The notes under the pieces are model-generated. The model ran no database searches, was not told where the DNA came from, and was given only the letters and a program-made list of their open reading frames with translations. Shown here one piece after another: positions 35,041 through 52,377 of a DNA stretch of 64,000 bases. Within the stretch, counting starts at the first letter, position 1. The number at the start of each line of letters is the position of its first letter. The stretch comes from a virus (taxonomy: Duplodnaviria; Caudoviricetes), in IMG/VR virus record IMGVR_UViG_3300035497_000313, positions 1 through 64,000 of that record; one strand, written 5' to 3'. The position numbers and the translations under genes were made by a program.

Positions 35041-36243
35041 TTATTCTGCTGCTTTAAAATTATAAATAGGTTTAATTATCTTTTCAATTTCAACTGTATC
35101 TTTTATAAGTTCTATAATTTCTTGCGCTGGTTTATATGCCATAGGTGCTTCGTCTATTGTACTTTCATTTGCTGTTGTGGTATAAATACCATTCATAGAA
35201 TTTTGAAATTCTTCTACTGTTAATCTTTTTCTTGCTTGTGAACGTGACATAATTCTTCCAGCTCCGTGTGGTGCTGAATAGTTCCAATCTTCATTTCCTT
35301 TACCTATTCCTATAATAGAACCGTCTCTCATATTAAGTGGTATTAATACTTTTTGACCTTGTAAAGCACTTATGGCACCTTTTCTAATTATTCTTGTATC
35401 TACATCAATATAATTATGTAAAGTATGAAAATATTTATAATTTTTTAATTTATTCAGTCTTAATCCTACAAGTATTTTTTCTGCTATTGTTTCTCTATTT
35501 ATTGTAGCAAACTTTTGGCATATTCGCATATCATATAAATAATCTTCTAAACTTTCACCTTCTACATAACATAATTCATCTGGCATTTTAGGTTTTATTG
35601 AATCAAACTGTTTTAAAGCCTGTTCTATTTCTTGTTCTTTACCTTCTGATTTTAATTTATTTATTATGTCTAATCTTTCGTCTCTATGTCTATTTAAAGT
35701 ACGAATTGCCTTATGTTGATAAACTTCTGCTACTTGTTTTCCTAAGTTTCTACTTCCTGTATGTATAACTAAATACTTACAATCATCTTCGTCTATGTCT
35801 ACTTCAATAAAATGATTTCCACCACCTAATGTTCCTATCGAAGCTTCTAACCTATCTTTATTTTTTAGTTCTTCATAACATCTTAAATCACGTATGTTGA
35901 ATTTACTATCCTTATAATATTTATCTGACTTTTCACAAACTTCTCTACCACAAGGAATATTCTTCTTAATAATTTTATCTAACTTAGTTAAATCAATATC
36001 AACTTTTCCAAGAGGTACAGTTAGCATACCACAAGCAATATCTACACCTACAATATTAGGAATAACCTTATCAGTTAAATTTGCTGTAAACCCTATAACA
36101 CTTCCTTTACCTGTATGTACATCTGGCATAACCCTTATTTTACTATCTTCAAATACCTTAGTATCTACTACACTATGTAATTGATTTAGGGCTTCTTGTT
36201 CTATATTATCTGTAAATATTTTTACATTATTAAATTCTATCAC
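35041..36243 (-). CDS. rtcB: RtcB family RNA ligase
   Basis: MPDVH, VGVDIACGM, GTLGGGNHFIE, HTGSR, HNY, RKGA, HGAGR, DEAPMAYK. Confidence 0.95.
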   Translation of the reverse strand: MIEFNNVKIFTDNIEQEALNQLHSVVDTKVFEDSKIRVMPDVHTGKGSVIGFTANLTDKVIPNIVGVDIACGMLTVPLGKVDIDLTKLDKIIKKNIPCGREVCEKSDKYYKDSKFNIRDLRCYEELKNKDRLEASIGTLGGGNHFIEVDIDEDDCKYLVIHTGSRNLGKQVAEVYQHKAIRTLNRHRDERLDIINKLKSEGKEQEIEQALKQFDSIKPKMPDELCYVEGESLEDYLYDMRICQKFATINRETIAEKILVGLRLNKLKNYKYFHTLHNYIDVDTRIIRKGAISALQGQKVLIPLNMRDGSIIGIGKGNEDWNYSAPHGAGRIMSRSQARKRLTVEEFQNSMNGIYTTTANESTIDEAPMAYKPAQEIIELIKDTVEIEKIIKPIYNFKAAE

Positions 36244-36380
36244 GTTATTATCTTCCTTAAAAATTATTAAAATTTAATAAAAATATTTGTTAAAATAAAT
36301 TTATTTTAACTGGGTTAAACGCTAACCCTCTATTAGTTATTTGATTGAAATCAAAATTACTAAATTCTTTTCTTAAAATT
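36244..36380 (-). ncRNA. Putative TnpB right end / omegaRNA scaffold (limits approximate)
   Basis: Overlaps the tnpB 3' end as expected for omegaRNA; conserved in a second copy at ~52996-53115. Confidence 0.45.
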
Positions 36381-37477
36381 CCTATTGCTCCATTTACGTC
36401 AGCATTGATTAACTTTTTAATTGAAGATTGAAATAACCCTCTTTTTATTCTTTTTCCTAAATAAGTTTCGTGTTTACAAAGTTCTTCATTTGCTAAATGG
36501 TCTACTTTACTTGTATAACTTTCTTCTGTTATTATTACTTTAATTCCTACTAACTCTGCTTTGTATTGAATTTGTTGTATTAACTTTTCATAAGGAATTG
36601 ATACAAAGTTTTGATTATTTCTTTTACCTAAATTTACTTCTTGTTTCCAATCTTTATTGTTACCAATAACTATATTTCCAATTTTATTTTCAATACAGTA
36701 ATTTATAATGAATCTTGAAGTTTTATGTAAATAATCAGTTACTTTGTTGTTTCTTTTTAAAGTTAATTTATCGATACGATTAGAAGTTCCTTTATCTTTT
36801 ACAAATGACATTAATTCAGCTTTTCTTTTATTGAAATACTGATTAGTAGATTTAAGTGGTTTACCGTTTATAATGAAAGGTTTTAAACCTACATTATTGA
36901 AAGTTGTAACTAAATTACTTAAACCTAAGTCAATACTTAAATAATTTTCTGTATTAACATCTACTTGTTGAACTTCTTTTTCATATACAATCTCTACTAC
37001 ATAACAAGTTGCTTGGGGTATTATTCTTGTTTGTATTAAATTTTCTTGTGTTACTTTTGTTTTTATTGGTTGAATACAATTCTTAGCAAAATAAATATAA
37101 CCATTTTTAATCTTGCAATTTTGATTTGTAAAAATAACTATATTTCTACCGTTCTTAGCTTTATAATTAGGTAATTTTGGTCTTGCTTTAAATTTACTTT
37201 TATTTTTATTGTATTCTTTATTTGCTTTAAAAAATGACTTCCAATTTTTAAATAAAAGTTTAATTACTTGTTGAGAACATTGAACTGGTAAACTTCTAAA
37301 ATCAATTTGATTTTCTTTAGCTAATTGAGTTGAAATATCATACTCATTTAACATTTTTCCATTTGAAATAAATTCTTGACGAACTAAATAATTTACATAA
37401 TTATATAAATTTTTAGATTTAAAACATAAATCATCAATTTGTTTATTAACAATTATATGTCTTTCAACTAGGTTCAT
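36290..37477 (-). CDS. tnpB: TnpB-family RNA-guided endonuclease (IS200/IS605/IS607 OrfB); no tnpA present
   Basis: SKNLYN, RuvC motifs SIDLG, EESYTSK, NADVNGA; all three catalytic acidic residues present. Confidence 0.92.
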   Translation of the reverse strand: MNLVERHIIVNKQIDDLCFKSKNLYNYVNYLVRQEFISNGKMLNEYDISTQLAKENQIDFRSLPVQCSQQVIKLLFKNWKSFFKANKEYNKNKSKFKARPKLPNYKAKNGRNIVIFTNQNCKIKNGYIYFAKNCIQPIKTKVTQENLIQTRIIPQATCYVVEIVYEKEVQQVDVNTENYLSIDLGLSNLVTTFNNVGLKPFIINGKPLKSTNQYFNKRKAELMSFVKDKGTSNRIDKLTLKRNNKVTDYLHKTSRFIINYCIENKIGNIVIGNNKDWKQEVNLGKRNNQNFVSIPYEKLIQQIQYKAELVGIKVIITEESYTSKVDHLANEELCKHETYLGKRIKRGLFQSSIKKLINADVNGAIGILRKEFSNFDFNQITNRGLAFNPVKINLF

Positions 37478-48241: not shown

Positions 48242-49729
48242 TTATAATATATTTGTACCGTATATTGCTACAGGAACTATTAAATTGTTTTTTGACGTAC
48301 CGCCAGAAGTAGAATATTCATAACCACCCCATATGTATAATTCCGTAGATGACTTAATAGAAAATTGCCGTGTATACCATGTATTGCCACCTACCCATTG
48401 GTCAGATACACACATCATCATAGTTGTATATCCAGCAGTAGCATAGTTTGTGCCAACTCTAAACTTTTTCTGTAGAATCGTACAGTTTTTAGAACCCCTA
48501 TCACTATCTAAAATATATTCAATAACCAAATATTTAAAATCTGCAACAGAATGAGTTAATGATACTGATTGTGCTGAAAATTCATTAAGATTCCCATAAT
48601 CATTTTTATTACTATTTTCCCAAAGTATACCTGAGTCGACACCCAAGGTTGTTTTAACACCAGCGACATCAGTTGCTCCTGTACCACCATATTTTATAGG
48701 CAAAGTACCGTATACACCAAGTGTTACGTCTTTGGTTCCATCAAATGTAACTAGAGAAGTACTTGCTAAATTGACTGACATAGCCCTAGGATTATTTAAT
48801 CTTTCAGATGTGGCAACATACGTTATTTTAACATCTCCTGTACTACCATTAACTGACGTTACTGTATTTACTTGGGCACCTGAAGCTATACCATCTAATT
48901 TTGCTTTATCACTTGCTGACATTAAACCATCTGTTGACTGTGAAGCAGTACTGTATGTCGTATCAGTAAGACTAACAGTTGTGTTAGAACTTTGATTTGC
49001 TGAAAATGTTGCAACTTGAGTATTATTTTGCTTAATTGTTAATGTTCCATTATTAACAGTAGGAATTGTAGGTGTATCATTTAAATCTGAATAACTACCA
49101 CTCGATGCTACTGTTGCAAGCCCTAAGTTACTACGTGCCGTTGTAGCATCCGTTGCGCCTGTGCCACCTCGAGTTATAGGCAAAGTACCCGTTACACCGG
49201 GTGTTATGTTAATAGAACCGTCAAACGAAGATGCAGAAGTACTTCCTAAGTCAGTCTGTATAGTTCTGGAATTATATAATTTTGTTGCAGTAGAAGCATT
49301 TCCACTTATACTATTTCCCAATGTATTGTTACATTTAACAGGCACACCATCAGAACTAAAATAAACTGGATAAGTAGAAGAACCAACTGCACTAGATAAA
49401 TTAAGACTATCTGCTGTAGCAGCAGAACTAATATTAGTTGCCGTACCTGTAAGTCCTATACTTAATTTCTTAGTACTACTATTTTGAGATAATGTAACAG
49501 TCATACCATTTGATTTTGAACTGCCAACATCAATTAAATCAGTTCCAAGCTTTTTTGCTGTTACTACACCATCTTTAACAGAACTTGCTTCAGTAGCTGT
49601 GTCAGCATTACCTTTTAACGACCCAGTTATTGTTCCCCCTACCTCTAAATTATTTGCAATATAAGCATCGCCATCTGTTTTATTATCAGTATTTAGAACT
49701 TGTAATTTTTCTTTACCTGTATAAGACAT
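48242..49729 (-). CDS. Tail fibre protein
   Basis: GNADTAT, GTLPI..GGTGAT (x2), GLMSASDKAKLDGIA. Confidence 0.85.
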   Translation of the reverse strand: MSYTGKEKLQVLNTDNKTDGDAYIANNLEVGGTITGSLKGNADTATEASSVKDGVVTAKKLGTDLIDVGSSKSNGMTVTLSQNSSTKKLSIGLTGTATNISSAATADSLNLSSAVGSSTYPVYFSSDGVPVKCNNTLGNSISGNASTATKLYNSRTIQTDLGSTSASSFDGSINITPGVTGTLPITRGGTGATDATTARSNLGLATVASSGSYSDLNDTPTIPTVNNGTLTIKQNNTQVATFSANQSSNTTVSLTDTTYSTASQSTDGLMSASDKAKLDGIASGAQVNTVTSVNGSTGDVKITYVATSERLNNPRAMSVNLASTSLVTFDGTKDVTLGVYGTLPIKYGGTGATDVAGVKTTLGVDSGILWENSNKNDYGNLNEFSAQSVSLTHSVADFKYLVIEYILDSDRGSKNCTILQKKFRVGTNYATAGYTTMMMCVSDQWVGGNTWYTRQFSIKSSTELYIWGGYEYSTSGGTSKNNLIVPVAIYGTNIL

Positions 49730-49803
49730 TGTTTTTATCTTCCTTTATGTTTTTTCTACATTATAACACAATACCTTTCATTCTGTCTAATTTCATTCTA
49801 AAT

Positions 49804-49837
49804 AAAAAGTAGTTATAAATAATTATAACTACTTTTT
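49804..49837. terminator. Intrinsic terminator closing the RAMP-array transcript
   Basis: aaaaagtagttataa...ttataactacttttt perfect inverted repeat. Confidence 0.75.
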
Positions 49838-49856
49838 ACCTTGTTATTTCGTTCAA

Positions 49857-50527
49857 TGCCTATACGTTACAAAAATTAACTACACAATTCCAATACTATT
49901 CCGCACTTCACTCTGCGCTTCCTTTACGTAACCGAACGAAACTAAACGTCACATTTCCTTAACAATACCGTACTCTACTTCACAATACTAAGCCTACACT
50001 TATCAAAACCGTACACTACGAAACCTTTACATAACATCACGAAGCTGAACATAGCTTTTCCACGGCATTACTCAACGTTGCAATTCCTTAACTGCGCAAT
50101 TCATATCCATTACGATACTTAACTTGACAATTCCAATACAGAGCCAAACTAAACTTTACAGTTCCAACGCTTTTTGATACATCACTCTACATTTCCATTA
50201 CCTTACGACACTTTACTCAGCTTAGCCATTACCAAACTAAAACATACATTACCATTACTATACAATACGGCACTCGTCTTGACCATTACTTTACTGGACT
50301 TTACTTCGCATTTCTTTTACCATACATCTCCGAACGTAGCTTTCACAATACATAGCGTTTTATTACAGTACTGTACCGTTCCTATACTGGACTAAACTCA
50401 ACATTACCTTTACTTGGCTGTTCCATACTATTCCGTACCGCTACTTTACGATACTTCCCTTCACAACACCGCACCGTTGCTAGCCACAACGTAACTTAAC
50501 AGGACCGCCCAGCACAAAGCCTTTGCA
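49857..50527 (-). repeat. Non-coding array with 5-nt periodicity (transcript: NNN-GU pentamers), ~21 units mostly 21-36 nt delimited by GG
   Basis: Plus strand parses as cc-NNN-ac-NNN-ac-NNN..., e.g. cc att ac tat ac aat ac ggc ac tcg tc ttg a; unit lengths are 5n+1; no minus-strand ORF in the track. Confidence 0.85.
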
Positions 50528-51160
50528 TTATTTATCGTCTTTATTACCACCTACGGTATTACCATTTTCGTCTAATAATTCATATCGGAAGGACCCCTTT
50601 CCAGAGTTACGCCATTGTAAGAAACCATTATACCTACCATAATTAAGCCACTCTTTTACAAGTTCTTCAAGTGTATCATCTAATATTGTAATTCCAAATG
50701 TACAAGTAGAACCAGCATTTATTTCTTCACTTATTGCAATACTTATTCTTTCACCTTGCATTGTTTGTGCTCTTAATGGTCTTTGACATTCTGTAATTTC
50801 TGTAATATTTTCAATTTTATTTTTTCTATCGTCAATAAATACACATAAGTCTATTACTTTCTTATATGCTTTAATTGCTTTTGACTTACTACCTGTTGCC
50901 ATTCTCATTGCACTACAAGCTGACTTAAAGAAACCTTTAATTTGATAATCATAAATAAAAGGTGTACCATCTTCTAACTTAGGAAACCAAGTCTTTCCTT
51001 TTTCTACTACTTCGTCTACACCTACAGAAGCTACTTCATCTTCAATAGTGTTTGCATCGGGTGACTTACTTCCTATAAAGGAACGATAAATATCTTTATC
51101 ACCTGTTTGTGTTCCTAAAACTGATTGTGTAAATGTGATTTTTACTTTTAAATTTTTCAT
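50528..51160 (-). CDS. Solo Cas7/Csm3-like RAMP protein
   Basis: VKITFTQSVLG (beta1), GTPFIYDYQIKGFFKS (cf. Csm3 PYIPGSSLKG), EEINAGSTCTFGITI, C-terminal G-loop GFLQWRNSGKGSF. Confidence 0.7.
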   Translation of the reverse strand: MKNLKVKITFTQSVLGTQTGDKDIYRSFIGSKSPDANTIEDEVASVGVDEVVEKGKTWFPKLEDGTPFIYDYQIKGFFKSACSAMRMATGSKSKAIKAYKKVIDLCVFIDDRKNKIENITEITECQRPLRAQTMQGERISIAISEEINAGSTCTFGITILDDTLEELVKEWLNYGRYNGFLQWRNSGKGSFRYELLDENGNTVGGNKDDK

Positions 51161-51942: not shown

Positions 51943-52377
51943 TTATTTTATACCTGAATCACTACAACCACAAACAAATTCATCTGATGAATAATGTCTA
52001 AATACCATATTTTCATCTTCTATCATATGTGGTTGTTTAAGCCATTCTATTTCTTTTTGTAGAGCTTCATCTCTACTACAATTTTTGCCTGAAAAATCTC
52101 CATACCAAAAATCAAATGGAGCAATCCAATTCTTATGTATTCTTGTTTTAGCATAATCTTCGATTGACAAATTTTTAAACCATTCAAAATTAGTTGTATC
52201 GTTTTTATGCTGTTCTAAATAATTATCAACTACCTTATGAAAAGTTAATTCAACTTGCTTACAATCTGTAACAGTAAATTCAATATTTAATCTTTGTATT
52301 GTACCTTCTATACAAAGTTGATTAAAATCAAATTCTATTGTTGCTGTAAAACCTTTATAATATAATTTATTATCCAT
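51943..52377 (-). CDS. HicB-like N-terminal domain protein
   Basis: YKGFTATIEFD...GTI...F...VELTFHKVVDNYLE. Confidence 0.5.
   Translation of the reverse strand: MDNKLYYKGFTATIEFDFNQLCIEGTIQRLNIEFTVTDCKQVELTFHKVVDNYLEQHKNDTTNFEWFKNLSIEDYAKTRIHKNWIAPFDFWYGDFSGKNCSRDEALQKEIEWLKQPHMIEDENMVFRHYSSDEFVCGCSDSGIK

Follow-up and report, generated by a model that had tools for sequence, protein, structure and literature searches.

A probable VIPR locus of the staggered-array kind in an uncultured 102-kb phage

What kind of system is formed by a single RAMP-like gene and a long, strictly phased non-coding tract that lies directly behind it in a phage genome? The question is raised by a locus in positions 1 to 64,000 of the IMG/VR virus record IMGVR_UViG_3300035497_000313, a stretch of 64,000 nucleotides (nt) that we call the window and that is part of a single 102,436-bp contig from an uncultured, myovirus-like phage. 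On the minus strand of this stretch, a gene for a 210-aa protein is followed by ~690 nt that can be parsed into pentamers with fixed and variable positions. Here, we show by autocorrelation and parsing, complemented with structure prediction, profile comparison and a survey of homologous loci, that gene and tract belong together, and we conclude that they very probably constitute a "staggered array" form of VIPR (Viral Interference Programmable Repeat) in which the repeats are YNNNG (that is, N-G-Y/NN). The locus is a well-formed further instance of a kind that has been published already.

VIPR, a newly described (2026) RNA-guided DNA-recognition system, has been proposed as an ancestor of the CRISPR RAMP proteins. 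In the text of the preprint that describes it, a phage-borne minimal RAMP, Vipr, is encoded beside long intergenic vrRNA tracts composed of YNNGG pentamers, the variable dinucleotides of which recognise double-stranded DNA while every third target base is skipped; rival phages and satellites are the targets and transcriptional silencing is the outcome (bioRxiv 10.64898/2026.04.26.720920). The same text names seven VIPR types, with NNNGG, YNNNG and NNNNG as alternative repeats, and its methods and the legends of figs S17-S18 describe "staggered" arrays, the processed vrRNAs of which have start positions that overlap by 1 nt. Next to vipr, an accessory vap gene is typical, but not universal, in the published description. 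Satellites compete with VIPR, and stand-alone satellite vrRNAs are described to misdirect the VIPR of the phage (10.64898/2026.10.15.759431). Finally, a language-model survey lists 21 clusters of non-canonical 5-mer arrays beside Vipr-like folds, WGT/NN and TGH/NN among them (bioRxiv 10.64898/2026.10.21.760802, section 2.3 and fig. S10).

The pentamer array and the adjoining gene

Read on the minus strand, in the sense of the gene, the tract has a lag-5 autocorrelation of 0.44, compared with 0.28 ± 0.016 in shuffled sequences, so that the 5-nt peak expected by the initial annotation of this DNA is indeed present. At lags of 26, 31 and 36 nt the autocorrelation (0.43, 0.49 and 0.42) is much higher than at 25, 30 and 35 nt (0.30, 0.24 and 0.22), which is the signature of units that are 5n+1 nt long. 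A dynamic-programming parse of the minus strand, from which the unit boundaries were taken, divides the tract into 20 units, all with 5n+1 lengths: 31 nt in nine, 26 nt in five, 36 nt in four, and 41 nt and 21 nt in one each. Together they hold 119 pentamers of the form NNN-G-H, four to eight per unit, in which position 4 is a G in all except four (115/119) and position 5 is mostly T (83, with 20 A, 15 C and 1 G). Each unit opens with one extra base, an A in 14 of the 20, continues with a head pentamer xxGGH and then with further pentamers; the double G is present in the first pentamer of 18 units, and in the remaining pentamers the first of these two positions is free. The initial annotation had described ~670 nt of pentamers with a fixed GU, sometimes GC or GA, that lack a minus-strand open reading frame (ORF) and are set off by an extra base at a GG into ~21 units of 5n+1 nt. 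The parse bears out this description with 20 units, and minus-strand ORFs of at least 40 aa are absent between the stop codon of the gene and position 49,843.

The boundaries of the tract are well defined. Close to the stop codon lies a longer unit of nine pentamers that may be a leader instead of a guide (Table 1), and at the other end the array runs via a degenerate unit or tail into a terminator-like hairpin with a free energy of -18.9 kcal/mol (z -7.6), a value that none of 200 shuffled sequences reaches. A perfect terminator closing the tract had been claimed previously, with coordinates that are right to within a few bases. The hairpin is not called by a consensus terminator scan for the sole reason that its stem is AT-rich. 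On the minus strand, a promoter scan gives no sigma-70-like site immediately before the array. Throughout the 102,436-bp genome the tract is the only 5-nt-periodic region, and a search of the genome for the shape of a unit (xxGGH and then four NNNGH) gives 13 matches, all of them within the tract, leaving no stray units elsewhere. The array RNA is predicted to fold no better than shuffled sequence (z +0.28), and such a lack of excess structure fits a single strand that is coated by protein.

The RAMP/Cas7-like fold of the 210-aa protein is well supported by modelling. An AlphaFold2 prediction based on an alignment of 65 family members (pLDDT 89.6, pTM 0.83) consists of an RRM-like core, a thumb formed by a long beta-hairpin (residues 122-147), and a helical insert at residues 22-44 that is predicted with lower confidence; a glycine-rich, C-terminal G-loop, GFLQWRNSGKGSF, spans residues 179-191. 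The protein thus combines the RRM core, glycine-rich loop and thumb of a minimal RAMP. Foldseek against the PDB retrieves type VII Cas7 and type III Csm3 with E ~1e-7. In a VIA-align search of 48,161 representative chains the best matches are Csm3 (9g9a_D, Z 12.0, root-mean-square deviation 3.5 Å over 158 residues) and Cmr4 (6s6b_I, Z 11.9), with domains of gRAMP also matched; all 34 matches with a Z of at least 8 are CRISPR RAMPs, the top ones being Csm3, Cmr4 and type VII Cas7 at Z 10-12, and Cas6 proteins score lower, at Z 7.2-7.7. These comparisons agree with the Csm3-like RAMP/Cas7 protein that the initial annotation had proposed. At the sequence level, the family profile matches type VII Cas7 (E 8.9e-6) and Csm4 (E 6.6e-4) among PDB sequences, in both cases over the G-loop, and a viral structure library gives as its best match a virome protein with 56% identity, which bears the label "Cas system-associated RAMP superfamily protein".

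At threshold, the protein matches no family in PHROGs, Pfam, NCBIfam or PADLOC. Below threshold it matches Cas6_N in Pfam (E 0.016; 15.8 bits with a cut-off of 23.9), Csm4 in NCBIfam (12.2 bits with a cut-off of 55) and Cas6d in PADLOC (E 0.018). The family itself is very large, comprising 3,725 clusters at 90% identity in a word-indexed search (E ≤0.001) and 1,614 clusters at 50% identity in an exhaustive search, and its members are named only "hypothetical protein" among the matches listed.

Homologous loci and turnover of the variable bases

To what extent do gene and array travel together? We examined 84 homologous loci, 4 from GenBank and 80 from IMG/VR, with homologues that are 49-65% identical. 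In every one of them the gene is adjoined by a tract with 5-nt periodicity, 200 nt or more in length, which follows it in 67 loci, precedes it in 12 and flanks it on either side in 5, and in 83 of the 84 the tract parses better on the strand of the gene. The initial annotation had made its reading depend on such arrays being present beside homologues, and none of the 84 homologues examined lacks one. None of the neighbours of the window gene recurs across these loci, which represent unrelated phage backgrounds. With an array in every locus and no recurring neighbour, the conserved mobile module consists of the gene and the array.

A common unit grammar emerges from 548 unique family units. The extra base is an A in ~65%, the first pentamer is A-N-G-G-H, with its two Gs conserved at 94% and 99%, and the second is A-W-N-G-Y; three to five NNN-G-H pentamers follow, in which the three variable positions carry 0.02-0.15 bits, and the final pentamer closes with G-C or G-Y. 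Most units have five, six or seven pentamers. The G is followed mostly by C in GC-richer phages and by U in the AT-rich phage of the window.

Within this frame the variable bases change freely. The loci with the closest homologues (L090 and L093, 84-85% identical) are located in unrelated phage contexts, by ERF, RecT or YqaJ genes; their arrays start at the stop codon of the gene, as in the window, and agree with the window array in frame, head motif and unit sizes, with variable triplets that are unrelated. Among related units, polymorphic columns (out of 605) number 77 at n1, 103 at n2, 91 at n3 and 77 at position 5, and only 20 at the G. A fixed scaffold in which the G alone resists change, combined with freely varying bases, is the behaviour of a guide array. 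The same phage, with an identical vipr-like gene and array, is found in at least four other metagenomic samples; the four contigs concerned are uninformative on array turnover. Metagenomes with this phage include JGI 3300035499 and 3300043104 and the runs SRR11792099 and SRR11792166.

Some of the homologous loci have further features of their own. In L064, on the 155-kb contig IMGVR_UViG_3300010163_000006, a 55%-identical homologue is located between two arrays (L064:826-2400 and L064:3626-4125), of which the upstream one is by far the largest of the set, with ~1,575 nt, a window-like NNN-GT grammar and 216 GT pentamers in the parse. In L005, the block tagGC aaaGT tttGA tggGT gatGT gatGT occurs twice in one array (L005:3683-3744 and L005:3781-3811), which suggests that units or blocks can duplicate inside an array. 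The vipr-like gene stands directly downstream of a recombination module both at L090:1215-2813 and at L093:273-2744, the module being ERF with Lin1244_N in one of the two and YqaJ with RecT in the other. This setting is the early region of temperate-type phages; the window gene is instead located beside tail-fibre genes.

Relation to published VIPR systems and competing explanations

A direct point of comparison is the experimentally proven Vipr of phage SUSP1 (KT454805.2), where a 195-aa gene is flanked by GGT-NN arrays and its product is deposited as PDB 36pp, "SUSP1 Vipr protein". Using hhalign, the family profile of the window protein aligns with SUSP1 Vipr end to end and in co-linear order over 172 columns (E 2.3e-5, probability 76%), and with 36 aligned members of the SUSP1 family over 183 columns (E 5.3e-5, probability 67%). 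Both probabilities lie below the usual mark of 90%, and kinship between the two proteins is moderately supported by these profiles.

In the Vipr filament one protomer is present per repeat, and N4 and N5 pair with the target (10.64898/2026.04.26.720927). SUSP1 Vipr contacts G1 by H17 and D177, which hydrogen-bonds this base, and G2 by R138 and W178, which stacks on it; R179 contacts Y3 and is part of its pocket (10.64898/2026.04.26.720927). The G-loop motif is GLGQWRN in the family of the window protein and GLGDWRP in the SUSP1 family. W183 and R184 of the window protein, both at least 90% conserved in its family, align to SUSP1 W178 and R179, whereas SUSP1 D177 aligns to Q182, and H17 to G16 or T17. 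As G-G-H is kept in the unit heads, the invariant G would correspond to G2 of the canonical G1-G2-Y3. H17 and D177, the two readers of G1, have no counterpart in an alignment of moderate confidence, and their loss may explain why G1 is free in the family of the window protein.

In the published register, the window repeat reads N-G-U/NN and is equal to YNNNG or WGT/NN. It differs from the canonical GGY/NN repeat in that the double G is confined to the unit heads, but since YNNNG and WGT/NN have already been published, the lack of the canonical form is no bar to VIPR membership, and the 5n+1 units fit the published staggered layout. As far as can be judged from text and legends, the published staggered VIPRs with YNNNG or WGT/NN repeats share with the window locus that they are phage-borne, that a single small RAMP gene lies beside a long intergenic pentamer tract, that a fixed G is followed by Y or H, that units are offset by 1 nt, and that a CRISPR array and other cas genes are absent; the difference is that the window locus has no vap gene. 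A tandem 5-nt repeat, in which hypervariable positions alternate with fixed ones, is located beside the gene and on the same strand, and within the 64-kb window the phage carries it outside any CRISPR-cas locus. The initial annotation proposed a solo RAMP/Cas7-like protein, each subunit of which binds one pentamer of an adjoining non-CRISPR guide array, and saw a kinship with VIPR; this reading is supported by the RAMP fold, by the moderate similarity to SUSP1 Vipr, by the pairing of gene and array in all 84 loci, and by the published logic, which is the same. Its further suggestion that a GU/NNN grammar with GG punctuation forms a distinct new variant does not hold, as YNNNG repeats, staggered arrays, WGT/NN and TGH/NN have been published already.

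The type II VIPR of SUSP1, with Vipr, vap1 and four vrRNAs, resembles the window locus in its phage-encoded RAMP of ~200 aa, the GLGxWR G-loop, the 5-nt repeat RNA on the strand of the gene, and profiles that align over their full length. In contrast, SUSP1 has GGY/NN repeats, 9-16 of them per ~100-nt vrRNA, a conserved structured 3' tail on each vrRNA, and vap1, whereas the window has N-G-H/NN repeats, four to eight per unit, no tail between units, no vap and no counterparts of H17 and D177, and its units are punctuated solely by the 1-nt offset and the GG head. With tail-less units of 21-41 nt and no vap, the locus falls outside type II as defined by the clade of SUSP1 and P. fulva. From Csm3 and Cmr4 of type III and from type VII Cas7, which share the RRM core, the G-rich loop and the thumb hairpin, it is set apart by its step: these CRISPR backbone RAMPs polymerise on guide RNA with a fixed step of 6 nt, compared with 5 nt in the window, where the protein is a single minimal domain. 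Membership of CRISPR-Cas type III or VII is not indicated either, as all Cas profile matches are sub-threshold and neither CRISPR repeats and spacers nor other cas genes are present in the window, consistent with the absence of other cas genes claimed at the outset; for the 38 kb beyond the window, scanning covered periodic tracts and patterns of unit shape only, not cas genes. Rfam at the gathering threshold gives no RNA family in the 64-kb window, no CRISPR repeat family and not even a tRNA.

How would such a module work? We propose that the vipr-like gene and the array are co-transcribed from the minus strand, since no separate promoter is seen upstream, the array starts at the stop codon, and the hairpin ends it. 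The RNA would be cut into, or used as, ~20 short vrRNA units, along each of which copies of the RAMP protein would polymerise, one protomer per pentamer. Each protomer would hold the invariant G together with the next base, which is not a G and in the window is usually a U, and would expose the variable bases. The resulting filament may then bind matching double-stranded DNA of a competitor (a phage, a prophage, a satellite or possibly a host gene) and block transcription of the target. Beyond the existence and joint travel of array and RAMP, every step of this scheme, from transcription and processing to DNA binding, silencing and the kind of target, is drawn by analogy from the homologous VIPR systems of SUSP1 and P. 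fulva.

Targets were searched for under several reading rules. In an exact scan, ~600 unique guide units from 85 loci were compared with 1.27 Mb of locus flanks and the phage genome, arrays masked, under nine spacing rules (NNx, NNN, NNNx, NNNxx, NN, NNxx, NNxxx, n2n3x and n1xn3), and matches were as frequent as in shuffled controls; a few NNNxx matches arose from mis-parsed coding flanks. A mismatch-tolerant scan of ~570-600 guides against 1.46 Mb, comprising the 10-kb flanks of 80 related phage contigs and the phage genome, gave observed distributions equal to the shuffled ones for NNx, NNN, NNNx and NNNxx, and the window guides have no self-match above chance in their own genome under six rules. 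Exact searches of IMG/VR returned no match for the window unit at 49961-49926, read as NNN or as NNNx, and none for ten pentamers of a conserved 12-pentamer family guide read as NNx. A 9-pentamer family guide read as NNx gave 9 matches, approximately the chance number, in unrelated ORFs from non-gut samples, some of them stop-to-stop frames of 60 aa; we take these as chance.

Several of these observations weigh against assigning the locus to VIPR. The hhalign similarity to SUSP1 Vipr is moderate, with probabilities of 67-76%, and the fold libraries searched with Foldseek and VIA-align contain no Vipr structure, so that the likeness is alignment-based. No accessory vap gene is conserved beside the vipr-like gene across the 84 loci. 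Units are short, with four to eight pentamers of which the first two are semi-conserved, leaving ~6-12 free bases per unit under the NN rule, which is few for unique targeting. In addition, no target was found under any rule tried, in related flanks, the own genome or the IMG/VR scans.

A first alternative is that the same parts work by another code or on another target, with NNN read per repeat, with or without a skipped base, or with RNA being acted on. We consider this possible, if on the doubtful side. The position of SUSP1 G1 is free in the window family and the residues that read it seem to lack counterparts; the units have about half the length of a type II vrRNA (5-7 compared with 9-16 repeats), and, counting every pentamer, reading NNN would yield a comparable 15-21 nt; in related units the rate of variation at n3 equals that at n1 and n2; and RNA can serve as a target of the SUSP1 filament in vitro too (10.64898/2026.04.26.720927). 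However, no rule stood out in any target search, correlations between the pentamers of a guide and open-frame fractions do not point to one rule either, stop codons among the n1n2n3 triplets of the window are as frequent as expected (9 compared with 10.3) while the depletion across the family is weak and confounded by composition, and the n1n2 composition in the window fits codon positions 1-2 best, though slightly and by small margins. A related proposal, which we find tentative and rather unlikely, is that a gut-phage subfamily (~1,600 clusters at 50% identity) follows a rule of its own, in which guides span about one filament turn (5-7 protomers), the (A)-ANGGH-AWNGY head nucleates the filament, three bases are read per repeat because the G1-reading residues have been lost, and vap is dispensed with. 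If true, this would mean a second, denser VIPR code, or cooperative recognition by many short guides.

The two remaining explanations deny the array a guide function. Taking the protein to be mainly a Cas6-like processing or RNA-binding factor, and the array to be a regulatory or decoy RNA, for instance a sponge for the Vipr of rivals, would accommodate the weak profile matches to Cas6_N and Cas6d and would parallel the use of stand-alone vrRNAs by satellites against phage VIPR, as described in the text of 10.64898/2026.10.15.759431; but Cas7-type backbone subunits are clearly better structural matches than Cas6, the likeness to SUSP1 Vipr, which forms filaments, covers the full length, and gene and array are one module in all loci examined, which makes this explanation improbable. 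More improbable still is that the tract acts as a DNA-level element (phased protein-binding sites, an origin or a packaging signal) or is an inactive relic, in either case yielding no functional RNA. A sigma-70-like promoter is indeed missing directly upstream of the array, yet the asymmetry of the tract follows the strand of the gene in all loci but one, the tract extends from a stop codon to a strong hairpin, and the variable bases have turned over completely while frame, head and invariant G were kept. The gene is moreover intact, and gene and array are identical in the four contigs from other samples.

Within the VIPR reading, what does the locus contribute? The features added here, as judged from alignments, are the conserved unit head (A)-ANGGH-AWNGY and the apparent absence, in the window family, of counterparts to the residues that read the first G in SUSP1; neither the two-pentamer head nor the missing G1 readers are mentioned in the text of 10.64898/2026.04.26.720920 or 10.64898/2026.10.21.760802. 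The locus is a tidy representative of a seemingly very large branch, in which no member is named among the matches listed, with compact units of 26, 31 and 36 nt that have a conserved head and with a change in the G-loop that fits the relaxed repeat. If this branch were to read three bases per repeat, it would use a second programmable code with shorter guides, which would bear on the evolution of gapped codes and on tool building; three-base reading is the sole question raised here that could lift the locus beyond another family member.

Genomic setting of the locus

Table 1. Positions in the window of the vipr-like gene, the array and the adjoining features
Feature	Position	Strand	Evidence
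vipr-like gene, 210-aa RAMP/Cas7-fold protein (P0001)	50528..51160	-	AlphaFold2, Foldseek, VIA-align, profiles
Leader-proximal first unit, 9 pentamers, 49 nt	50479..50527	-	Parse; begins 4 nt past stop codon; higher G+C
vrRNA-type array, 20 units (21-41 nt), 119 pentamers	49864..50478	-	Autocorrelation and parse
Degenerate last unit or 3' tail (a tagGC attGA acgAA ataAC), runs into hairpin	49843..49863	-	Parse
Terminator-like hairpin, perfect 19-bp stem, 4-nt loop, U-rich 3' side	49800..49841	-	Folding compared with shuffles
Promoter-like site TAGACA, 18 nt, TG-TATAAT, for next gene; end of module	49760..49789	-	11/12 consensus matches
Tail-fibre gene, next after array	48242-49729	-	PHROG tail-fibre match

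The phage genome encodes a portal, tail fibres, a primase and RtcB as marker genes. The nearest relatives of its portal, with ~30-34% identity, are portals of large Streptococcus, Listeria and Bacillus phages, and by this likeness in sequence a Firmicute host is likely. A DNA search of the locus against GenBank phages gave no match. The genes in this part of the window are all on the minus strand (Table 1), as are all long ORFs of the window (1-64000), which has a negative GC skew over its whole length.

Of the ORFs of 81, 143 and 144 aa that lie upstream of the vipr-like gene, only the 144-aa one matches a family, a HicB-like PHROG. This ORF is located two genes upstream, at 51943-52377 on the minus strand, and its N-terminal 59 residues match a HicB-like antitoxin (E 3.9e-7). 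Elsewhere in the window, at 35041-37477 on the minus strand, an RtcB-type RNA ligase (PHROG E 2e-131) adjoins a 395-aa ORF of a transposase family (PHROG 506, E 2.9e-47).

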